In this document: positions 3,854-56,776 of the stretch, piece by piece
Numbering within the stretch: position 1 is the stretch's first letter
Layout: each line of letters starts with the position of its first letter
From: Synergistaceae bacterium
GTDB lineage: Bacteria; Synergistota; Synergistia; Synergistales; Synergistaceae
DNA: 64,000 bases
Assembly: GCA_031289775.1 (NCBI GenBank)
Contig: JAITOY010000002.1
Location: 28,337 to 92,336 of the forward strand
Reading direction: 5' to 3'
Translations under genes and position numbers: made by a program
Notes under the pieces: generated by a model
The model's input: the letters and a program-made list of their open reading frames with translations, nothing else
What the model was told of the DNA's origin: nothing
The model's database searches: none

Positions 3854-5440
3854 ATGTTATTTTATTTTTCTCCAAAACATAGGAGAAATTGCGCAGGAAA
3901 CGGATATGATGCTTTCATGATATGTAGTGCGGCTACTGTGAGGCTGGAAAAAATAATCGATGGCAGACTGACTCATAATTCGGACGATCGATGTTTCTGG
4001 TGGGACGGAAAGTGGTACTCGAAAGCGGATTTTTCAAAGCTCGCTGCCGAATGCGAAAGTTATCTTCGGAACGCTGGTTTCAGCGAAGGGCAGCGTCTGG
4101 CGACTCTTATGCCAAACTGTCCGGTATTCACTGCGCTGTCGCTGGCGATCTGGAGGATAGGCGGCGCCGTCGTTCCCTTGAACATCAAGTCAGGCGCGGA
4201 ATCTTTGACCAGCACACTCGAGCTTATCGAACCTTACGCCGTCGCGATGCTTGACAATGTACGAAATGAAATGCGCTCTGTTCTGCAGGCTGGAGGATTC
4301 GACTGTCTCGCTCTGCCGCCAAACTCGCCTCTTCCGAGATTCGCCGAAAACCGGAAATTTGGAAAGACATCGTCGATCCTTAGTCCCGACACCTGCGTCA
4401 TTTTTACCACTTCGGGCACGACCGGGAAGCCAAAGGCGGTTCCTTTGAGTCACGTCAATATATACGAAAATTGCTGCGCTATTCATGAGGCCGTCATACC
4501 GCTCGATTCGAAAGACGTGCTGCTCAATGTCATGCCGAATTTTCACACTGTCGGTTATACCATCGCAAATATAATGCCCCTGATAATCGATGCCTCGCAG
4601 GCTATAGTGCCGGAATTCATGCCGCCAGGCAGGACAATTAAAGCTATTCAGGACGCGGGCGTCACATTCATGTTCGTCGTTCCGGCTGTCGTGTCATATC
4701 TGTTGCACGCCATGGAGCGCGGAGACGCCCCCAAAGATTTGTTAGAGCCTTTCACGATGATCATCACCGGAGGCGACCGTCTCGCGGATAACGTACACGA
4801 AATGGCCGTGCGTATTGGGGGGAAAGACGTGGCGGAAGGCTACGGGCTTACAGAAACTTCCCCGGCGATCGCGCTGAACCGCGATTACGAAACTCACAGG
4901 CGCGGCACGGTCGGCCCGTTCGTCAGAAACTATGAATGGCGTTTGAGAACCAAATCCGGCGAGGATACCGACAAAAACGAAGGCGTCCTGTGGGTGCGAG
5001 GGCCTTCCGTGACAACAGGTTATTTCCGTTCGCCTGAAACCACGGCGGAACGTTTCGTTGACGGATGGTTTAACACCGGCGATTACGTACAGGTGGAAGA
5101 CGGTTATCTTAAAATTCTGGACAGGATCACCGACATCATAATCGTCAGCGGTTTCAACGTCTATCCGCAGGAAGTGGAGCTTATCCTGAATGAACATCCG
5201 GCGATCCGCGGCGCTATAGTAGTGGGGATCCCGAACAAGTTCGGCGGGGAGATACCAAAAGCGTTTGTCCTGAAAGAAGAGCGCGCGAACGTGACAGAGC
5301 GTGAAATCGTGAAATACTGCAAAGAGCGCCTTGCCCACTTCAAGGTTCCGAGAAGCGTAGAGTTCGTGGACGAGTTTCCTCTCTCAGGAACAGGCAAAGT
5401 ATTGCGCCGCATCCTCCGCGACAGAGAACGCGAAAAGTAA
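3854..5440 (+). CDS. AMP-forming acyl-CoA synthetase / ligase (ANL superfamily)
   Basis: The AMP-binding P-loop motif FTTSGTTGKPKAV is present, with GYGLTETSP, a YFRSPE/GWFNTGD core and the C-terminal GKVLRR lysine motif. The true start may be the in-frame ATG at 3917 (MICSAATV…). Confidence 0.75.
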   Translation: MLFYFSPKHRRNCAGNGYDAFMICSAATVRLEKIIDGRLTHNSDDRCFWWDGKWYSKADFSKLAAECESYLRNAGFSEGQRLATLMPNCPVFTALSLAIWRIGGAVVPLNIKSGAESLTSTLELIEPYAVAMLDNVRNEMRSVLQAGGFDCLALPPNSPLPRFAENRKFGKTSSILSPDTCVIFTTSGTTGKPKAVPLSHVNIYENCCAIHEAVIPLDSKDVLLNVMPNFHTVGYTIANIMPLIIDASQAIVPEFMPPGRTIKAIQDAGVTFMFVVPAVVSYLLHAMERGDAPKDLLEPFTMIITGGDRLADNVHEMAVRIGGKDVAEGYGLTETSPAIALNRDYETHRRGTVGPFVRNYEWRLRTKSGEDTDKNEGVLWVRGPSVTTGYFRSPETTAERFVDGWFNTGDYVQVEDGYLKILDRITDIIIVSGFNVYPQEVELILNEHPAIRGAIVVGIPNKFGGEIPKAFVLKEERANVTEREIVKYCKERLAHFKVPRSVEFVDEFPLSGTGKVLRRILRDREREK

Positions 5441-23346: not shown

Positions 23347-23405
23347 CAGGCGCTCTCGCATTCATGGGGCGCACCCGGATATCCCGGAGTGAAAGGACGA
23401 CGCGC

Positions 23406-24413
23406 ATGATATTCATCAGCCATGCCGAGAGAGACGCGCCTCTGGCGGCAGCTCTCAAAAATTTTTTTGCGGAATGTATCGATGTTGCGCCGAAAAAAAT
23501 ATTTTGCACATGCATTCATGATCCGGAGCAGACGGACAACGAGTTGCCTTATGGGCGGTTGAAGGAGGAAATCTCCGAGAGCAGCATCGTCTTCGCCATA
23601 GTGACGCAGGATGGAGTCTCGTCCGGCAGCGTCCTTTTCGAGCTAGGCGCGGCGTGGATACTCGCAAATGGCATTTTTTTAATCTGTCTCGACGGTTCTG
23701 ACTTTCGTGATCTTCCGGGGCCGCTCAGCGCTTTCCCTTGCGTAGACGTCGAGGACAAGGACGCCGCGATCCGCATTATGGGCATGTGTCGTGACGCGGC
23801 CGCCGCCCTTGGAGTTGGGATAAAAAGAGGACCTAAAGTCGTCTCTTCGCTGACGGATGTTCTTGACTCGATCGCAAACCGCAAGAAGGATGACGACGCC
23901 GAATACGAATACGAAGACGAAGACGAAGACGAAGACGAAGACGAAGACGAAGAGAGGGACGGCTCTGACGAAGAAACTGGCGAGCGGTATGAAGTTGCCG
24001 AGTGGAGGGGCAGCGACTATTGCGAGATAAGTTTCATGGTCGACGGAATAGGAAGGAAAGATGTCGCGACGGTGCGGATTTTCTGGGACGACGTCTTCAT
24101 GACGATTGCGCAGAACACAAGGAAGTCTCAGGACGAGCCGTTTGTGGCAAGCGTGCTGTTGGAGCTGTGCAGAGAGAGAGACCCGGATTTTTCGAAAGCC
24201 CTCAGCTATAGGCTTATGCTGAATCCCGAGATATCTCCGGAGAGCTTCGCCCTTATCATGTCGCGGCTCTCGTCCATGGGTTTCATAGGCCCGTCCCAGC
24301 CGCCCCACACCGTATTCCAAAAGCAAGCTCGCGGGACGTTCTGGAAATTGACCCATGTCGGCGAGGAACACCTGCGTAGCGTGATTGCCGGACGGAGAAA
24401 GCTTCAAATGTGA
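23406..24413 (+). CDS. TIR-like domain protein: N-terminal TIR-like domain, acidic repeat linker, and a C-terminal domain of unknown function
   Basis: AAGGA sits 9 nt upstream of ATG 23406. The N-terminus MIFISHAERDAPLAAALKNFF…SSIVFAIVTQDGVSSGSVLFELGAAW matches the bacterial TIR pattern (vFISYs..D……ivlS..y..S.WC..El). The linker is DDDAEYEYEDEDEDEDEDEDEE, encoded by (GAAGAC)6. I do not recognise the ~150-aa C-terminal domain. The ORF-track start at 23364 is less likely. Confidence 0.5.
   Translation: MIFISHAERDAPLAAALKNFFAECIDVAPKKIFCTCIHDPEQTDNELPYGRLKEEISESSIVFAIVTQDGVSSGSVLFELGAAWILANGIFLICLDGSDFRDLPGPLSAFPCVDVEDKDAAIRIMGMCRDAAAALGVGIKRGPKVVSSLTDVLDSIANRKKDDDAEYEYEDEDEDEDEDEDEERDGSDEETGERYEVAEWRGSDYCEISFMVDGIGRKDVATVRIFWDDVFMTIAQNTRKSQDEPFVASVLLELCRERDPDFSKALSYRLMLNPEISPESFALIMSRLSSMGFIGPSQPPHTVFQKQARGTFWKLTHVGEEHLRSVIAGRRKLQM
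23901..23954 (+). repeat. In-frame hexanucleotide tandem repeat (GAATAC)2(GAAGAC)6(GAAGAG), encoding EYEYEDEDEDEDEDEDEE
   Basis: Read directly from the sequence: gaatacgaatacgaagacgaagacgaagacgaagacgaagacgaagacgaagag. Confidence 0.9.
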
Positions 24414-24527
24414 GTGCCGGACGAACATCCTGCTTACGTCCTAAACGCGAAAAATCGGCGAATGCAATCGGCGGCATAACTATTGACTTATATCCTGTTT
24501 GGCGTAGAATAATCGCTTGTGATGTTT

Positions 24528-24603
24528 GAGCCGTTAGCTCAGTCGGTAGAGCACCGGATTTTTAATCCGGGTGTCCCGGGTTCAACCCCCGGACGGCTCA
24601 CCA
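24528..24603 (+). tRNA. tRNA-Lys (anticodon UUU)
   Basis: The 76-nt cloverleaf has a 7-bp acceptor stem (GAGCCGT/ACGGCTC), a D-arm AGCTCAGTCGGTAGAGC, an anticodon loop aTTTTTAAt (anticodon TTT), a T-arm GGGTTCAACCCCC and an encoded CCA. Confidence 0.85.
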
Positions 24604-24627: not shown

Positions 24628-24703
24628 GGTCCCATCGTCCAGTGGTCTAGGACACCGCCCTTTCAAGGCGGCGACACGGGTTCAAACCCCGTTGGGACCG
24701 CCA
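24628..24703 (+). tRNA. tRNA-Glu (anticodon UUC)
   Basis: The 76-nt sequence GGTCCCATCGTCCAGTGGTCTAGGACACCGCCCTTTCAAGGCGGCGACACGGGTTCAAACCCCGTTGGGACCGCCA closely follows the canonical tRNA-Glu architecture. It has a 7-bp acceptor stem and the anticodon loop C-TTC-AA. Confidence 0.85.
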
Positions 24704-32999: not shown

Positions 33000-33824
33000 A
33001 TGAAGATTTACATAAGCGCGGATATGGAGGGCGCGACTGGCGTTGTCCATAGTCGCCAGACGGATCACAGGGAACCGGAGTACGCCTTTGGACGCAAAAT
33101 GCAGCTGCACGATGTCAGGGTCGTCGTCAAAGGCGCGCTCGACGCAGGCGCGGACGAGATATTGATAAACGACTCCCACTGGCGCATGATCAACCTCGAC
33201 ATCTCCGAGCTAGGTTTTGATTCGAGGGTGCGCCTTATCTCGGGCGCGTCCAAAACGCTCTGCATGGTCGAAGGGCTGCAGGGGTATGACGCGGCGTTTT
33301 TTGTGGGTTATCACGCCAAGGCCGGGACGCCGAGGGCGATCATCGACCATACGATGAGCGACGCGATATACTCCATATCCCTGAACGGTCGCGAGGTGGG
33401 GGAGACGGGCCTAAACGCGGCGGTTTGCGCGGCTTGCGGCGTTCCCGTAGCTCTCGTGACCGGCGACACCGCGCTCTGCGCCGAGGCTGTGGAGCTTTTG
33501 GGCGATGGGCTTGTGGCCGCGGGGGTGAAAGAGGCTCGAGGCTGTCAGGCGGCTACTTGCCTGCTCCCTGAGGAGAGCGGCCCCCTGCTGAAAGAGGCCG
33601 CTTCCAAGGCGACAGAGCGCGCGCGCTCCGGAGGCGCGCCCGTTATGGACATCGGCGACGGTTCGTTCGACCTCCGCCTCACGTTCCGCAGCGCGGCTCA
33701 GTGTGACAACGCCGCTGTAGCGCCAGGTTCCGAGAGAATTGACGGACGAACCCTGCGCATAACCGGCAGCGGCATGACGGATATGATGCGCTGGACTCTG
33801 GCGCTTATTTCGCTTTCCTCATGA
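33000..33824 (+). CDS. D-aminopeptidase DppA (peptidase family M55)
   Basis: MKIYISADMEGATGVV… is the characteristic M55 N-terminus. It sits ahead of a Dpp ABC operon, as in Bacillus dppA. Confidence 0.65.
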   Translation: MKIYISADMEGATGVVHSRQTDHREPEYAFGRKMQLHDVRVVVKGALDAGADEILINDSHWRMINLDISELGFDSRVRLISGASKTLCMVEGLQGYDAAFFVGYHAKAGTPRAIIDHTMSDAIYSISLNGREVGETGLNAAVCAACGVPVALVTGDTALCAEAVELLGDGLVAAGVKEARGCQAATCLLPEESGPLLKEAASKATERARSGGAPVMDIGDGSFDLRLTFRSAAQCDNAAVAPGSERIDGRTLRITGSGMTDMMRWTLALISLSS

Positions 33825-33868: not shown

Positions 33869-35479
33869 ATGGAAAAAATGAATAAAAACCTGATATGTAG
33901 AATTTCGCTCGCGGCAGCCCTCTGTCTTTGCCTCTCTTTGCCGCTTTTCGCGGCGGAGGCGGACAAAAAAATCCTGCGCTACGGCGCGGTGAACCAGAAA
34001 TCGACGCTCGACATGCAGTTGAACACTTACAGCCGCGTGATGGACATATCCGACGCCATCGTGGAGCCGCTCCTGCGGATCGATGAGGAGAACAGGTTGA
34101 TTCCGGTTCTCCTGGACGAGACGCCGAAGCCGTCGAAGGACGGACGGACATATCGCTTCAAGCTCAAACCAGGTATAAAGTTCCACGACGGCACGACGCT
34201 AAAAGCGTCCGACGTGCAGTACACGTTCGAGCGTATGTTCAAACCCTCCACGGAGGCCGTGGCGACGTATATATGCGACATGATCGTCGGCGCTCAGGAT
34301 ATGCTCGAGGGCAACTCCGAGGATCTGAAGGGCTTCAAGGTAATAGACGACCTCACGTTCGAGATAACGCTCGACTTCCCGTACTCGCCGTTTTTAAATG
34401 CGATCGCGACGTCGTACGCTGGGATATACTCGCGGAAAGCTTGCGAGGCCGCCGGAAAAGATTGGGGGCTTGTGACATACATCGGCACAGGGCCGTTCAA
34501 GGTGACGAAAATGGATCTCGACAACGGCGTCGTCACTGAACGCTTTGAGGATTATCACGGCGACAAACAGCCCCTCGACGGCATAGAGTTTATTTTCATC
34601 GAGGATCCGAACACGAGGCGCATGGAGTACGAGAGCGGCAATATAGACATCATGACGCTCGACGCCATGCTGTACCCCGAGTACTCGAAGAGCCGCCTTG
34701 CGCCCGAGATAGGCAGCTACGCTCCTATAGGAATTATATTCGTGGATCCGAACGTGAAAAGCGAGTTCCTGGGCGACGTCAGGGTGCGCGAAGCAGTCAG
34801 TCTCGCTATCGACAGGCGTGCTCTCGCCGATGACCTGATGAAAGGAACGGCGATAGAGGCCCGGTCATTCCTGCCAAAAGGGATGGTTGGTTATGACGAC
34901 AAAGTCGCTCCGTACAAGCGCGACGTCGAGCGGGCCAGGAAGCTGCTGGCGGACGCCGGCTATCCAAATGGCATCGAGGTCGAGAGCTATATCCGCAACA
35001 CGGCGATGAACGAGATGACCGGGCGCATCCTGCTTGCCGTCCAAAACCAGCTCGCGGAGGCCGGGATAAACATCCGCGTCATACAGGTCGACCCGGCGAC
35101 GATGAGCGACATGAGAAGCAACGGCGCCGTGCCATTTGAGGTTTTTGACTGGTATGCCGACTTCCCCGACCCTGACGGGTTTTTATACTCCATGCTTTAC
35201 TCCGTAAACGCCGAGCAGTTGACGAGCAACTACAGAAGCGCCGAGTTCGATAAGCTGCTCGACGACGCGCGCGCGACAGCCGACGCGGAGAAGAGGGCGG
35301 AGCTTTACAAAAAGGCCGACAATATGGCAACGAGGGTCGACTACGCGGCCATCCCCCTGTTTCACGAGAAGCTATACTTCCTCGCGAAGCCGTATGTGAA
35401 AAATTTCAAAATGGTCTACAACGACGTGTTCCACTTCTACGGAGTCGACATAGACCTCGCGGCCAGGAAGAAAAAATAA
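33869..35479 (+). CDS. ABC transporter substrate-binding protein, family 5 (dipeptide/oligopeptide/nickel)
   Basis: AGGAGGAG RBS and a signal peptide. The family-5 SBP pattern (…KFHDGT…TLKASDVQYTFERM…) is present. Confidence 0.8.
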   Translation: MEKMNKNLICRISLAAALCLCLSLPLFAAEADKKILRYGAVNQKSTLDMQLNTYSRVMDISDAIVEPLLRIDEENRLIPVLLDETPKPSKDGRTYRFKLKPGIKFHDGTTLKASDVQYTFERMFKPSTEAVATYICDMIVGAQDMLEGNSEDLKGFKVIDDLTFEITLDFPYSPFLNAIATSYAGIYSRKACEAAGKDWGLVTYIGTGPFKVTKMDLDNGVVTERFEDYHGDKQPLDGIEFIFIEDPNTRRMEYESGNIDIMTLDAMLYPEYSKSRLAPEIGSYAPIGIIFVDPNVKSEFLGDVRVREAVSLAIDRRALADDLMKGTAIEARSFLPKGMVGYDDKVAPYKRDVERARKLLADAGYPNGIEVESYIRNTAMNEMTGRILLAVQNQLAEAGINIRVIQVDPATMSDMRSNGAVPFEVFDWYADFPDPDGFLYSMLYSVNAEQLTSNYRSAEFDKLLDDARATADAEKRAELYKKADNMATRVDYAAIPLFHEKLYFLAKPYVKNFKMVYNDVFHFYGVDIDLAARKKK

Positions 35480-38376: not shown

Positions 38377-39434
38377 GTTCGAAGTTCGCGGATTCCGCGA
38401 TTTTCAGGAGAAACGTGCCTGAGGAGAAAATCCCGATAGAGGACATGGCGTTCATAGTGGAGGGGAATTCGGCGCCTCTGCTTGAGGTGAAGGATCTGAA
38501 AAAATGGTTCCGAGTCTCGAAAGGCGCGTTTTCTAGCGGCGGCGCCGTGCGAGCGCTTGACGGCGTCGACCTCGACGTGCGGGTGGGCGAGACGGTCGCG
38601 TTGGTGGGGGAGTCCGGATGCGGAAAGTCGACGCTGGGCCGCGCGATTGTCCGGCTGCTCGTTCCGACGTCCGGCAGCGTCCGTTTCGAGGGGGAGAACC
38701 TCGCGAGCTTGAGAAGCGAGACGCTGCAAAAAAAACGCCGCGACATGCAGTTTATCTTTCAGGATCCGTACGCGTCCCTTGACCCTCGGATGACCATAGG
38801 GGACGTGATAGCCGAGCCGCTCGATATCCACAGGATATGTGCATCCCGGGCGGAACGCTCGTCGCGGGTGGGCGAGATAATGGAGACTGTGGGCCTCAAC
38901 CCGTCGTACGCGTCCCGATACGCCCACGAGCTTTCTGGCGGCCAGCGCCAGAGGATAGGCATAGCGCGCGCCATAGCGCTTCACCCAAAACTAGTGATCT
39001 GCGACGAACCAGTCTCGGCCCTCGACGTATCCATACAGGCCCAGATCATCAATCTGTTGAAGGATCTCCAGACGCGCTTTGGGATGGCGTATATTTTCAT
39101 ATCGCACGACCTCAACGTCGTTCGGCACATAGCGGATCGCGTATGTGTCATGTATCTGGGAAAGTTCGTTGAGACTGCCGACAAGCGCGACATCTTCGGT
39201 TCTCCGCGCCACCCGTACACGCAGGCGCTCCTTTCGGCCATACCTGTCTCGAACCCGAGGGTGAAGCGCGAAAAAATAGTGCTGAAAGGGGATATACCGA
39301 GTCCGGCGAACCCTCCGTCAGGCTGCCGTTTTCACACGAGATGCCCGGCGGCAACGGAAGTCTGCCGACAGGTATCCCCGGAACTGAAGGAGGTAGCTCC
39401 AGGGCATCGATGCGCCTGTTCGCGGATGATGTGA
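38352..39434 (+). CDS. Dpp/Opp ABC ATP-binding protein (DppF-like)
   Basis: Walker A GESGCGKST, LSGGQRQRIGIARA and a C-terminal Cys motif CRFHTRCP. The true start is probably ATG 38373 (MSSKFADS…). Confidence 0.8.
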   Translation: MACGVRVMSSKFADSAIFRRNVPEEKIPIEDMAFIVEGNSAPLLEVKDLKKWFRVSKGAFSSGGAVRALDGVDLDVRVGETVALVGESGCGKSTLGRAIVRLLVPTSGSVRFEGENLASLRSETLQKKRRDMQFIFQDPYASLDPRMTIGDVIAEPLDIHRICASRAERSSRVGEIMETVGLNPSYASRYAHELSGGQRQRIGIARAIALHPKLVICDEPVSALDVSIQAQIINLLKDLQTRFGMAYIFISHDLNVVRHIADRVCVMYLGKFVETADKRDIFGSPRHPYTQALLSAIPVSNPRVKREKIVLKGDIPSPANPPSGCRFHTRCPAATEVCRQVSPELKEVAPGHRCACSRMM

Positions 39435-39608
39435 AGCGCCTCGCTCTGTCGCATGTTCCAAATCATTCACTTTCACGACGCCTGAATGGATATTGTGTAT
39501 GAAGGGCGCTCTTCGACCGCTTTCTTAAACTTTATTTATAGGCTTCGCCGCAACGACCTTCGATGAAAATTTCATAAAATACTGATAAATTATCGGCTAA
39601 ATTACTGG

Positions 39609-39637
39609 TTGACAGCAAAACCGACGAAGCGTAATAT
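39609..39637 (+). promoter_or_regulatory. Near-consensus sigma-70-type promoter (TTGACA, 17 nt, TAATAT) with no ORF downstream
   Basis: ttGACAgcaaaaccgacgaagcgTAATATgatggc has a perfect -35 hexamer and an exact 17-nt spacer. The -10 matches TATAAT at 5 of 6 positions. Confidence 0.4.
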
Positions 39638-39643
39638 GATGGC

Positions 39644-39816
39644 GCAGTAAACGAGAACATTTGCCACATTTTGAGGTTCCGGTGAAGCTGGCAAGACATA
39701 ATTACGCCACAGGCAGGTCTATTGATAGAGCCTGAAATCCCATCATAAATCCGCACAAATATCCACGTACCAAGTTCCTTTCTCGGAGGCCCCGATGAGT
39801 CGGGGTCTCTGATTTT
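39644..39816 (+). ncRNA. Candidate small RNA (~170 nt) between the promoter at 39609-39637 and the terminator at 39786-39816
   Basis: A strong promoter and a strong terminator bracket ~170 nt with no ORF above ~17 codons. I did not recognise the family. Confidence 0.3.
39786..39816 (+). terminator. Rho-independent terminator (10-bp stem, GNRA-like tetraloop, U-tract)
   Basis: gaggccccga-tgag-tcggggtctc forms a 10-bp stem with one G·U pair, followed by tgaTTTTgg. Confidence 0.45.
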
Positions 39817-39911
39817 GGCGCCCCAGGCATGAGCCCGGCCCGCCGCCCATGCGCGCCAACGAATCAGCCCGACGGCCAAGGACGGCGGCTGTCGCACTCT
39901 TTCTGAAACTT

Positions 39912-40985
39912 TTACCGGAGGATGATTATCATGTCCCGCGTGAACTTGTTGAGCGGCTCCGCTGTCCCGTCATCCCGTACTGCGACTAAGTTTTCGATTC
40001 TGACGCCGAATTTCCCCTCCAAGTAAATCCCGGGCTCCACGCTGAAGACGTTGCCGGGCTGTAACGGGATGTCGTTGCCCTCGATTATGTACGGCGATTC
40101 ATGTATCGCGATCCCGACCCCGTGGCCGACCCTGTTGATGAAATGGGCCCCGTACCCGGCGCTGTTTATGACGGCCCGCGCGGCCCTGTCGACATCCTGA
40201 CCGGTTGCGCCTGGGCGGACGGCGGCTTCGCCCGCCTTCTGCGCCTCGAGGACGATGTCGTATACTTTTCGCTGTTCGTCGTCCGGCTCGCCAATGCAGA
40301 ACGTCCGCGTCATGTCGGAGCAGTAGCCGCGGTACTTGCATCCCATGTCGACGACAAGGAAATCCCCGGGTCGAAGCCTGCGATCGTTTCTGGAGTAGTG
40401 GGGCATAGATCCGCCGGGCCCGGACGCGGCGATCGGGCTGAAGGAGAGCTTCGGAGCGCCGCGTTCGGCGCAGAGACGCGCTATTTCGTCCTGCACCTCC
40501 TTTTCGGAGACGCCGGCTCGGATGAAACGAGATAGCTCGTCCATCACTTCGTCCGCGATGCCGCCGGCCCGCCTGAGATAATCCAACTCCGTCGAGTCCT
40601 TCACCATACGGAACGGCGCAAGGGCGTCGCTCCCGTTCGCCCATTCGAAATCGAGGACGGCCCTCATATCAATCAAGTCTACGGCGCGTACCCCGTCGTT
40701 GAAGGCGATTACGCTCCTTTTGCCATTTTTGTCAGAGCCCAGCCCCATTTCAGAGCATCCTGCGGCAAACGCGCCGGCAAACCCCTCGTGGTCGGCCCAC
40801 TCTTTGTAGATAACGTCGGGGCCAAGAGCGGCGCGCATCTCCTCGCGGTAAATGAGCGGGGTCATAGCGAAAAGTCCGCCGGTTGTCACCATAAGCCCCT
40901 TCACTCGCTCATCCTGAAAGAGCCTCAGCTCGGCCAGATATTCCATGTCCGTAGATGGGCCAAAATAAATGGCGTCCACTTCCAT
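39912..40985 (-). CDS. M24 family Xaa-Pro dipeptidase / aminopeptidase (PepQ/PepP-like)
   Basis: The creatinase N-domain is followed by the M24 pita-bread fold. Metal ligands lie in …DFLVVDMGCKYRGYCSDMTRTF…HGVGIAIHE…EPGIY…ENLV. Confidence 0.8.
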   Translation of the reverse strand: MEVDAIYFGPSTDMEYLAELRLFQDERVKGLMVTTGGLFAMTPLIYREEMRAALGPDVIYKEWADHEGFAGAFAAGCSEMGLGSDKNGKRSVIAFNDGVRAVDLIDMRAVLDFEWANGSDALAPFRMVKDSTELDYLRRAGGIADEVMDELSRFIRAGVSEKEVQDEIARLCAERGAPKLSFSPIAASGPGGSMPHYSRNDRRLRPGDFLVVDMGCKYRGYCSDMTRTFCIGEPDDEQRKVYDIVLEAQKAGEAAVRPGATGQDVDRAARAVINSAGYGAHFINRVGHGVGIAIHESPYIIEGNDIPLQPGNVFSVEPGIYLEGKFGVRIENLVAVRDDGTAEPLNKFTRDMIIILR

Positions 40986-41290
40986 TGAAACGAGATGCCG
41001 TTTTAGTTTATTAACCCTATCAGTGTTAAGAATGATAACGCCCCCTTATATGATATACTATAAATAAATTATAGGATATTAATGACGAAAACTTCGTTGA
41101 ATTCTGCTAAATCACGCGTAATTTCTTGTTTATCGAAACACACTAAGCAATTAGTATTACCAAAATTAGCATAAATCAAGTATTTATGGAAATTATTTTA
41201 TATTTATTGCGCCTTTCCCCTTCCCAATTTCAATATTCGTTGATATCATCAAATTACGGGGATAATTTATTTTACTCGAGGTGATCTCAC

Positions 41291-41956
41291 ATGAAACCTA
41301 TTCATTTGTTAATAGTCGAATCAGATCCGCTAGTCCTATTCTCCATCAGCCAGGTAATCAGGTATTTTGACAATTATCTGGTGGTGGATAAAGTGGACAA
41401 CGCCGAAGATGCCCTCGAGAGAATGAGGGTCGTGCCTGTAGACCTCATTATATTGGGGGGGCAGGAGAACATTGGCAAGTGGCACATTTTTGTCGAGTCT
41501 GGGCTCAAAACCAAGCTCCTGATGCTGGTGACAAATCCAGCGAAGGAGATGGTTCAGGACGCGATATCCTATGGGGTATGGGATATGGTCATCAGGCCCA
41601 TATCCACGGAGAGGCTGAGGTTCTCCCTCGAAATGTTCAGGTATCGCCATATATACGGCGAGTCGCTTGAGTATCCGGTACAGCAGGAGAGGCTCGACTC
41701 TATATTTTTCCCGCGCGAGCGTCATCAGCACATCATCGCTGGAACGATAAAAAACAGCGAGATGCTTGAAAAAGTCCTGCAGCTTATCGAAAACGGCGAC
41801 GAACCGCAGTCGGCGGGCGAGATAGCCGGCGTACTGAGCGTGTCGAGGATAACAGTCCGCAAATACTGCGAGGCACTCGTAAACACTGGCAAACTCCACG
41901 TGAAGAACAAATACCAGGCGAAGGGACGGCCGATAAAACAGTACTATATGGCCTGA
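41291..41956 (+). CDS. CitB/DcuR-family response regulator (REC plus C-terminal HTH) with no cognate kinase nearby
   Basis: The REC-like N-terminus is LLIVESDPL…VDLIILGG. The C-terminal …ISRITVRKYCEALVNTGKLHV…KGRPIKQYY matches the DcuR/CitB HTH tail. Confidence 0.55.
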   Translation: MKPIHLLIVESDPLVLFSISQVIRYFDNYLVVDKVDNAEDALERMRVVPVDLIILGGQENIGKWHIFVESGLKTKLLMLVTNPAKEMVQDAISYGVWDMVIRPISTERLRFSLEMFRYRHIYGESLEYPVQQERLDSIFFPRERHQHIIAGTIKNSEMLEKVLQLIENGDEPQSAGEIAGVLSVSRITVRKYCEALVNTGKLHVKNKYQAKGRPIKQYYMA

Positions 41957-54532: not shown

Positions 54533-56173
54533 ATGATTATGTCAATCTTAACAGTATTTATCGCTTTACTCGTTCTTTTTGTGTTCATGACGTTCATAGC
54601 GCTCTTGAGGCGCTACAGGCGCTGCCCGTCGGACAAGATTCTCGTCATATTCGGAAAAACTGGCGAGGGCTCCGCTAGGTGTATTCATGGAGGCGCTGCG
54701 TTCGTCTGGCCGCTCTTTCAGGATTATTCTTATCTCGACCTCACGCCAATATCCATAGATATCCCGCTCCAGGGGGCGCTCTCGCAGGAAAACATTCGAA
54801 TCGCGGCCCCGTCGACGTTCACCGTCGGCATCAGCACGGAGCCAGTCGTCATGAAAAACGCCGCCGAGAGGCTGCTCGAACTGAACCAGGCCGACGTCAG
54901 GAAAGTGGCCGAGGACATAATATTCGGCCAGTTTCGCGCCACGATAGCCACGATGAAAATCGAGGAGATAAACATGGACAGGGAGAAATTCCAGTCCGCA
55001 GTCATGGGCTCCGTCGAGGTAGAGCTCGCGAAGGTCGGCCTTCGCGTCATCAACGTCAACATAAAGGACATAGACGACGAGTCCGGTTACATAAAGGCCC
55101 TCGGCCAGAAGGCGGCGAGCGAGGCGATAAACCAAGCGAGGATCGATGTCGCGGAGCAGGAGAAAACGGGGCAGATAGGCGTCGCCGAGGCCGACAAGGA
55201 GAAGGAAATAGGCGTCGCCGAAGCCGCGAAAGAGCGGGAGATAGGCGTCGCCGGCGCGAGCAAGGAACGCGAAATCGGGCTCGCTCAGGCCGCCAAAGAG
55301 CGCGAGATAGGCATAGCCGGCGCGAACCGCGACAGGGATATAGGCATCGCCGACGCCGACAAGGACAAGGAGATCGGGCTCGCCGAGGCGGAGAAGGAGC
55401 GGGAGATAGGTATTGCGCTCGCCGCGAAGGTACGGGAAATAGCGCTCGCCGACGCGACGAAGGAACAGCGCATAGGTGTCTCCTCCGCCGACGCCCAGGC
55501 CGTAAAGGGCGAAAACATAGCGCGCCAGATAAAGGCCGACTCGGACGCGGAGCTGCGTGAGAAAGTGGCCGAGGCGAACAGGCGGGGCACGGTGGCCGAG
55601 AAGACAAAAGAGGCCGAGGCGAAACGCCTCGCGTACCAGGCCGAGATGGAGGCCGAAAAAGCGCGCGCCGAGCGCGACAAAGCGTCGAGGATCGCCGACA
55701 CGATCCCTGTGGCCGAGGCTGAAAAACAGCGCATGATAATAGAAGCGGACGCCCAGATGGAGCGCCAGAGCCGCGAGGGCCGAGGCGAGGGCGAGCGCGT
55801 CAAAAACGAGATGCTCGGCCGCGCCGAGGGCATGAAGGCCGTTTTCGACGCGAACTCCGAAGGTATAAAAAAGCTCGTCGCGGCCGCCTCCGGCGACGCA
55901 AACGCCGCCTTCCTCCTCATGATGGCCGACCGCGTCCCCGAGATGATGGGCATACAGGCCACAGCGATCTCGAACTTCAAAGTCGACAAGGTCACTGTCT
56001 GGGACTCCGGCGCGTCCGGCGGCAAGTCGATTTCGAACCTCGTCAAAGACTACGCCACAAGCCTGCCGCCGCTTCACGACCTGTTGAAGATGACGGGCGT
56101 GATGCCGCCCGGGATAATGGGCGGCGACGATAAAGCGGGTAAAGAGGCAAAAGCGGCGGAGCCTGTGGAATAA
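54533..56173 (+). CDS. Flotillin-like SPFH (band 7) domain protein with an EA-rich repeat region
   Basis: An N-terminal TM segment and the SPFH domain are followed by eleven 11-aa repeats (…KEREIGVAEAA…). Confidence 0.7.
   Translation: MIMSILTVFIALLVLFVFMTFIALLRRYRRCPSDKILVIFGKTGEGSARCIHGGAAFVWPLFQDYSYLDLTPISIDIPLQGALSQENIRIAAPSTFTVGISTEPVVMKNAAERLLELNQADVRKVAEDIIFGQFRATIATMKIEEINMDREKFQSAVMGSVEVELAKVGLRVINVNIKDIDDESGYIKALGQKAASEAINQARIDVAEQEKTGQIGVAEADKEKEIGVAEAAKEREIGVAGASKEREIGLAQAAKEREIGIAGANRDRDIGIADADKDKEIGLAEAEKEREIGIALAAKVREIALADATKEQRIGVSSADAQAVKGENIARQIKADSDAELREKVAEANRRGTVAEKTKEAEAKRLAYQAEMEAEKARAERDKASRIADTIPVAEAEKQRMIIEADAQMERQSREGRGEGERVKNEMLGRAEGMKAVFDANSEGIKKLVAAASGDANAAFLLMMADRVPEMMGIQATAISNFKVDKVTVWDSGASGGKSISNLVKDYATSLPPLHDLLKMTGVMPPGIMGGDDKAGKEAKAAEPVE
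55171..55480 (+). repeat. 33-bp tandem repeat array inside the flotillin gene (encodes repeated EIGxAxAxKER units)
   Basis: gataggcgtcgccga(g/a)gccg…aaggag… recurs about 9-10 times. It also creates the spurious antisense ORFs at 55056..56046. Confidence 0.7.
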
Positions 56174-56197
56174 AGGAGGCCGGCGAATAAATTCACT

Positions 56198-56776
56198 ATG
56201 CACAGGAGAGCGCGCGGCGATGCCATCGAAAAAAATATCGACGGACAATTTCGCGGGACAAGTCAAACGAGAATCATCGCTCTCGATATCGGAACGGTTC
56301 GGATAGGAGTCGCGGCGAGCGACCCGCTAGGTACGTTCGCGCAGGGGATCGCCGTGCTCCAGATGTCGGGCGAGTGGATGGACGAGTTGTCGGTCATAAT
56401 GAACGAGTACAGGGCGGGGAAACTCGTCGTTGGGATGCCCCGGCGAACCGACGGCTCGGACGGGCCGGAGGCTGTCAGGATGAGGAGCGTTATCGAAAGC
56501 CTGTCGGAGCGTTTTACGGGTATCGAGATTATTCCGTGGGACGAACGCTTCACGACGACGATCGCAAATCAGGCTCTTATAGGGGCGGACGTCTCGCGCA
56601 AAAATCGCAGAGGACAGGTCGACAAAGTCGCGGCGGCGCTCATCCTCCAGAACTACCTCGACTCGCTTTGCGGAGCTTCGCGGTTGGTTGGCCCGCCGGC
56701 CGAGTTCGCCGAACCAGTTTTGGATTCGAGGGACGCGGGACGAAACAAACGCAAGAAAAAAAGGGCCTATGACTAG
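56198..56776 (+). CDS. ruvX: Holliday-junction resolvase-like nuclease RuvX/YqgF (pre-16S rRNA nuclease)
   Basis: IIALDIGTVRIGVAASD… is the RNase H-like N-terminus of YqgF. The C-terminal ~45 aa are a basic extension. The true start is probably downstream of the ORF-track start. Confidence 0.65.
   Translation: MHRRARGDAIEKNIDGQFRGTSQTRIIALDIGTVRIGVAASDPLGTFAQGIAVLQMSGEWMDELSVIMNEYRAGKLVVGMPRRTDGSDGPEAVRMRSVIESLSERFTGIEIIPWDERFTTTIANQALIGADVSRKNRRGQVDKVAAALILQNYLDSLCGASRLVGPPAEFAEPVLDSRDAGRNKRKKKRAYD

Follow-up and report, generated by a model that had tools for sequence, protein, structure and literature searches.

A probable stand-alone small RNA gene beside a dpp operon in Synergistaceae

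What does an intergenic spacer of a few hundred base pairs express when it carries a consensus-like promoter and an intrinsic terminator, and no obvious protein gene between them? This question is raised by a locus in a 64-kb stretch of DNA (64,000 nucleotides; hereafter the window) from an uncultured Synergistaceae bacterium, for which an original prediction, made by eye, put forward a stand-alone unit that runs from promoter to terminator and encodes a small RNA. Members of the Synergistota are anaerobes that ferment amino acids in guts and digesters; to our knowledge almost nothing is known about post-transcriptional regulation in this phylum. A 2022 review lists a single annotated sRNA for Synergistetes/Synergistota in its Table 1 (PMC9029176). 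A survey of intergenic regions of Thermovirga lienii by the Breaker laboratory highlighted an SLH riboswitch candidate, while most other conserved motifs were classed as mobile or repeat elements and none was linked to a dpp operon (PMC6429828).

The spacer, which had been estimated at about 470 bp, is 477 bp long (39435-39911) and separates two convergent genes, a dppF-like ABC ATPase gene and, on the opposite strand as predicted, an M24 Xaa-Pro peptidase gene (Table 1). The ATPase, the second of the two encoded by the operon, clears the cutoff of the NCBIfam subfamily "dipeptide ABC transporter ATP-binding protein", and the labels "dppF" and "pepQ" are family-level assignments only. The best match among species-representative genomes in the M24 peptidase scan was a Synergistaceae MAG with 67% amino acid identity, and scans of genomes and metagenomes with this peptidase returned distant relatives only. 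The nearest non-identical homologs showed 74% identity for the peptidase and 80% for the ATPase; close relatives of the window genome are scarce. On the far side of the peptidase gene, an AT-rich island with sharp edges (40986-41290, 27-31% GC in a genome of roughly 60% GC) sits between this gene and a divergent response-regulator/HTH-like gene (41291-41956), and is likely a shared regulatory region.

Table 1. Features of the small RNA locus and its neighbours (window coordinates)
Feature	Position	Strand	Basis or remark
M55 D-aminopeptidase, within the dpp operon	33000-33824	+	
Family-5 solute-binding protein, within the dpp operon	33869-35479	+	
Remainder of the dpp operon: two permeases, then two ABC ATPases	second ATPase (last gene) ends at 39434	+	
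dppF-like ABC ATPase	stop at 39434	+	NCBIfam NF008453, 429 bits against a cutoff of 408
AT-rich stretch 5′ of the -35, partly conserved	39519-39608	+	L043 nhmmer alignment begins here
Sigma-70-type promoter: TTGACA -35 (39609-39614), 17-nt spacer, TAATAT -10 (39632-39637)	39609-39637	+	10/12
5′ domain of the predicted RNA, variable, with no conserved fold or ORF	39644-39697	+	start predicted about 7 nt past the -10
Short hairpin, invariant CAGG...CCUG base, variable top	39714-39734	+	RNAalifold and single-sequence folds
Conserved unpaired G-poor (C/A-rich) stretch, about 48 nt	39735-39782	+	comparison and folds
Intrinsic terminator: 13-bp hairpin (39783-39812), loop UGAG, then UUUU (39813-39816)	39783-39816	+	
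M24 (Xaa-Pro) peptidase	39912-40985	-	NCBIfam

Our comparison covered three loci on the peptidase side (L040-L042) and, on the dpp side, seven contigs (L043-L049) plus the window. The element was found in two further Synergistaceae contigs near dpp operons, L043 and L045, whose dppF orthologs share 80% and 72% amino acid identity, respectively, with that of the window. Together with the window, these contigs make up three independent carrier sequences, and the conservation in relatives that the original prediction had proposed as a check is thus found in both. In L043 the element lies directly downstream of the dpp operon, as in the window; in L045 it lies about 1.4 kb further on, past a minus-strand alanine racemase gene whose 5′ end stands back to back with the sRNA promoter (5320-5470 of L045), and upstream of citX.

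The near-consensus promoter described in the original prediction is present in the window and matches the consensus at 10 of 12 positions. It is the sole 10/12 match across 38500-41000. When both strands are counted, the 64-kb window contains 14 sites that score 10/12 or better; about 0.1 would thus be expected per 477-bp spacer, and just one other site combines a perfect -35 with 17-nt spacing. Taken alone, such a match is suggestive, not decisive. The promoter is conserved in both relatives, with 10/12 counterparts at 4270-4298 of L043 (TTGACA-17-TAGGAT) and 5436-5464 of L045 (TTGACA-17-TAACAT), so that TTGACA, the 17-nt spacer and TAnnAT stand in register in all three genomes. The AT-rich stretch upstream of the -35 shows 42-64% identity between genomes, and the three-way alignment contains the conserved blocks TTTCATAAAATAC(T/C)G and AAATTACT directly 5′ of TTGACA; judged by its sequence, this stretch may serve as an UP element or as a regulator binding site. 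Two palindromes that were spotted by eye 5′ of the -35 in the window, ATGAAAATTTCAT and GATAAATTATC, are lost in L043 and L045 and are not claimed here for that reason. Elsewhere in the window, two plus-strand tRNA genes (24528-24600 and 24628-24700) are preceded at 24483 by another 10/12 promoter, TTGACT-16-TAGAAT, and this type of promoter therefore appears to drive stable-RNA genes in this genome.

At the other end of the unit, about 150 nt past the promoter, the terminator had been described as a 10-bp GC stem with a TGAG loop and a TTTT tract at 39786-39816. The terminator is real and its inner stem (39786-39795 paired with 39800-39809) does have ten pairs around the TGAG loop, but the stem is not purely GC, as it includes one G-U and two A-U pairs, and it extends to a hairpin of 13 pairs with a folding energy of -23.1 kcal/mol. 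The U-tract in the window is short. Our terminator scan missed this site because the extended stem takes the first T of the tract and leaves four. The same scan detected the terminator of L043 (12 bp followed by GTTTTT), and folding revealed that of L045, a 9+3-bp hairpin followed by TTATTTTTTT. The three genomes thus carry three different hairpin sequences, each with a T-run after it, at a constant distance of about 180 nt from the -10 to the terminator end. Between the window and L043, 17 of the 30 hairpin nucleotides differ and 12 of the 13 pairs are kept, with five pairs changed on both sides in a compensatory manner and two on one side, so the covariation of the terminal hairpin that the original prediction had suggested looking for is observed. 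Pairing that is kept despite such sequence change is a signature of selection on the structure of the RNA or its terminator.

Conservation is distributed very unevenly over the transcribed region. The first 55 nt or so of the predicted RNA show 37-54% identity between genomes and the terminator segment 40-50%, whereas an 85-nt core between them (39698-39782) shows 79-88%. Within this core, the 41-mer 39742-39782, ATCATAAATCCGCACAAATATCCACGTACCAAGTTCCTTTC, is 100% identical in L043 and matches at 36 of 41 positions (88%) in L045. Between the window and L043, identity falls abruptly from 100% to about 50% right at 39782/39783, the junction with the terminator hairpin.

These boundaries predict a non-coding RNA of about 170 nt on the plus strand, running from approximately 39644 to 39816; we infer both its transcription and its exact ends. 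Its variable 5′ domain gave folding z-scores of +1.2 in the window and +0.6 in L043. The short hairpin that follows contains four invariant base pairs and inner pairs that are partly variable (RNAalifold, alignment columns 72-92). In each of the three copies, the centroid or MFE fold leaves the G-poor stretch between this hairpin and the terminator unpaired; this stretch carries the motifs UCCC, UCCG, UCCA and UUCCUUUC, the last directly 5′ of the terminator. The full-length RNA folds no better than shuffled sequences (z = -0.8), which is usual for base-pairing sRNAs but lends the gene no structural support.

The known distribution of the element is narrow, as it is present at three of the eight dpp loci sampled. 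No copy was detected in the fetched DNA of the dpp loci L044 and L046-L049 by nhmmer, a fuzzy pattern or a covariance model, and at the peptidase-side loci L040-L042 the synteny is not kept and neither a copy nor a related sequence was found. The lack of the element at these five dpp and three peptidase loci points to a narrow distribution or a mobile gene. A covariance model built from the three copies (R1) gave exactly one match per carrier and none in the rest of the window or at twelve further Synergistaceae loci. A repeat search, nhmmer and the covariance model with its filters off detected no paralogue within the window; distant blastn gave no match to the element among PLSDB plasmids, and viral contigs contained no match to a 26-nt core pattern. 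The DNA pattern ATCCGCACAAATNTCCACGNACCAAG can be used alongside R1 to look for more copies. A hint of one comes from assembly data: the Logan contigs L019 and L020, from the same strain (SRR14710898), overlap by exactly 30 nt (39753-39782), and the left contig stops at 39782, the final base of the conserved 41-mer. In a graph with k = 31, an overlap of k-1 nucleotides indicates a branch, and therefore a second sequence in the sample that has the core in common and departs from the window exactly where L043 does. Judged from the contig ends, this branch is compatible with a further carrier, or a further copy, within that community.

Which known class of RNA could this be? The original prediction had found no assignment to 6S RNA, tmRNA or a known riboswitch by eye and had proposed an Rfam search, whose outcome agrees with it. 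Rfam 15 gave no match for the element at gathering thresholds over the whole window, and at E ≤ 10 each of the three copies gave only chance-level matches (E > 1) that differed from copy to copy. ARAGORN found nothing, so there is no tRNA or tmRNA at the element. For 6S RNA in particular, no Rfam 6S match appeared at E ≤ 10 in any copy, and the MFE structure, with the z-score given above, is not rod-like. The element thus passes the membership test of no named RNA family.

We also looked for pairing partners of the RNA in the 64-kb window, which holds only a small fraction of the genome. RNAduplex predictions against the whole 64-kb window and 185 start regions were not better than those for shuffled seeds, and the RNA showed no pairing with the leader or the start regions of dpp. 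For exact complementarity of at least 10 nt, the 64-kb window contained one 11-mer, inside a histidine-kinase coding region; one 13-mer exact complement was present in the window, but against a non-conserved part of the RNA. The Shine-Dalgarno sequences of the window genome are mostly of the GGAGG type and the exposed segment contains no CCUCC; therefore, a generic mechanism in which the RNA mimics an anti-Shine-Dalgarno sequence was rejected as not supported.

Given the frames that overlap the unit, we considered whether it might encode a protein instead. The original prediction had allowed no ORF longer than about 17 codons. A GTG-initiated frame of 17 codons is indeed present on the plus strand, but this becomes a 24-codon ORF (39661-39735) if TTG starts are allowed, and a 121-codon ORF on the minus strand (39532-39897), which spans the whole element, had gone unmentioned. 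A plus-strand mRNA for a very small protein, or a dual-function RNA, would be in keeping with a GAGG followed 4-5 nt on by GTG/ATG-AAG in both the window and L043. Nevertheless, the corresponding frame has 5 codons in L043 and is replaced by a different frame of 36-39 codons in L045, the peptides are unrelated, and the stop codon of the window frame precedes the conserved part of the RNA. In the 85-nt core, codon changes are mostly non-synonymous in all six frames, with no synonymous bias in any of them, almost all of these frames are interrupted by a stop codon in one or more of the genomes, and a 1-nt deletion is present in L043. We therefore regard a small protein as very unlikely. The minus-strand ORF begins 15 nt past the peptidase stop on the same strand and might be co-transcribed after the peptidase gene, but it has no NCBIfam family match, and a chimeric six-frame peptide query found nothing similar among 5.8 billion predicted proteins. 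It is broken into pieces of 28-83 codons in L043 and 34-38 codons in L045, its changes are nearly all non-synonymous, the part that would be encoded by the terminator hairpin is completely different between genomes, and the peptidase loci of relatives lack such an ORF or sequence. On this comparison of sequences, the minus-strand reading is effectively refuted by non-conservation, and the ORF is likely to give rise to spurious "hypothetical protein" annotations. Across the three genomes, neither strand contains a conserved reading frame. The promoter-then-terminator layout of the unit is also that of a cis-regulatory leader, or riboswitch, that carries an attenuator, and in L045 citX does follow on the same strand. 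However, the next gene in the window is the convergent peptidase gene, the next annotated gene in L043 is a minus-strand HIRAN gene, the three genomes have unrelated genes downstream, and we found no aptamer-like conserved fold and no Rfam match. Because the downstream gene differs in each genome, the element is not a cis-acting leader, as the original prediction had already argued from gene orientation in the window, and an attenuator or riboswitch is even less probable than a small protein.

Two further explanations accept the conservation and place its cause elsewhere. The constraint could act on DNA, with the element as the 3′ UTR and terminator of the dpp operon next to a fortuitous promoter, or with the 41-mer as a recombination or attachment site. 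In the window, no clear terminator separates the element from the dppF stop, which would fit the former, and for the latter one may cite the gene order past the element, which differs in all three genomes, as well as the abrupt drop in identity and the Logan assembly branch, both exactly at 39782/39783. Neither version accounts for TTGACA-17-TAnnAT in register in all three genomes, or for a hairpin and T-run that persist past the break in each of them, as expected of a terminator that evolves by compensatory change; there is no integrase and no repeat of the 41-mer, and in L045 the minus-strand alanine racemase gene lies between dppF and the element, which therefore cannot be a dpp 3′ UTR there. 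We consider conservation at the DNA level decidedly improbable. The main rival is titration in place of mRNA pairing, in which the C/A-rich strand would act as a platform for an RNA-binding protein (e.g., Hfq, Rho or a different single-strand binder) or would soak up a G/U-rich sRNA as a sponge. Such a role would suit the conserved segment, which is long and unstructured, has very few G and repeats UCC and CA(A)AU motifs, and it would also fit the search of the 64-kb window, which yielded no mRNA target. On the other hand, perfect identity over 41 nt at a DppF identity of 80% fits base pairing better than the degenerate motifs recognized by proteins, and no CsrA-type GGA motifs occur in loops. 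Titration is thus unlikely in our view, if somewhat less so than conservation at the DNA level.

The reading we prefer, with a probability of roughly 0.6, is a stand-alone RNA gene of about 170 nt with its own promoter and terminator, most likely encoding a trans-acting base-pairing sRNA. The stand-alone unit of the original prediction is supported by the conserved promoter, core and terminator and by the lack of a conserved ORF, and that the element is a genuine non-coding RNA gene we hold to be highly probable; base pairing as its specific mechanism is an even call. Under the base-pairing model, a strong sigma-70-type promoter and an intrinsic terminator, both belonging to the gene itself, would start and end transcription on the plus strand, and the RNA would present the exposed segment 39735-39782 as the proposed functional surface, either seed or binding site. 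This segment, with its four UCC-containing motifs and UUCCUUUC, could pair with purine- or G-rich stretches of mRNAs, such as ribosome-binding regions, and the pairing would alter the translation or stability of these targets. Both the mode of action and the nature of the targets are what we infer from an exposed, sequence-invariant segment beside a terminator hairpin, an arrangement that favours a trans-acting antisense regulator. The recurrent position beside the dpp operon further suggests a link to peptide or amino-acid metabolism. A bolder proposal, which we put forward tentatively and at slightly less than even odds, is that the element is the founding member of an undescribed, dpp-linked RNA family of Synergistaceae, in which the 41-nt segment would control genes for peptide or amino-acid utilisation. 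A more unusual variant would have the segment act as a decoy for an RNA-binding protein or another RNA.

We then compared the element with known systems. Like generic trans-encoded sRNAs, for example the Hfq-dependent ones of enterobacteria, it is an orphan intergenic unit of about 170 nt with a strong promoter, a U-tailed terminator and no ORF, in which a conserved single-stranded segment lies between hairpins and the remainder is variable. It differs in having no sequence or Rfam relation to any described family and in carrying its conserved segment directly before the terminator, not at the 5′ end. RsaE/RoxS of Firmicutes likewise offers several unpaired UCC(C)-type motifs in a G-poor region that could pair with G-rich ribosome-binding sites; the C-rich motifs of RsaE/RoxS are CCCC-like and located in hairpin loops, whereas those of the element stand in one long linear stretch with no CCUCC and no Rfam RsaE match, and the similarity is a resemblance only. 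DapZ is an sRNA at the 3′ side of an operon, has its own promoter and regulates peptide transporters, and GcvB is a regulator of dpp/opp in enterobacteria. The element shares the dpp theme with them, and in the window and L043 it is placed directly past a peptide-transport operon with no clear terminator in between. However, the seeds of GcvB and DapZ are G/U-rich and act on C/A-rich targets, while the element is itself C/A-rich, the opposite composition, and its copy in L045 does not follow the operon on the same strand. With 6S RNA the element has in common a length of about 170-180 nt, a strong promoter and the lack of an ORF, but not the long irregular rod with a central bubble, which is not predicted for it.

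If the bolder proposal above is correct, this would be among the first trans-acting sRNAs with a function to be defined in the Synergistota. The element probably represents a new and well delimited sRNA family, not a new kind of element, and offers a place to start for transcriptomics and for predicting targets on complete MAGs. It would also serve as a positive control that scanning from sigma-70-type promoters to terminators works in the Synergistaceae lineage.

Several minor observations were made in the related loci and elsewhere in the window. In L046 and L047, which carry no copy of the sRNA, an alanine racemase gene also follows the dpp operon; with alanine racemase genes as neighbours and an M55 D-aminopeptidase gene in the operon, the locus appears to be devoted to peptides that contain D-Ala. 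In L043, an unannotated short ORF on the plus strand with a GGGAGG ribosome-binding site (4644-4830, recognized by eye only) sits past the sRNA terminator, inside a 785-bp gene-free stretch. At the contig end of L044, after the dppF ortholog, apparent 5S and 23S rRNA sequences lie on the opposite strand (3990-4223, again by eye only). Within the window, the long minus-strand ORF 54566-56266 contains a degenerate 33-nt tandem repeat (55173-55410, 7.2 copies, 66% matches), which probably reflects an 11-residue repeat in the protein rather than a CRISPR array. Finally, a GAAGAC/GACGAA trinucleotide-type repeat at 23889-23954 encodes a D/E-rich acidic run in the ORF 23364-24413.
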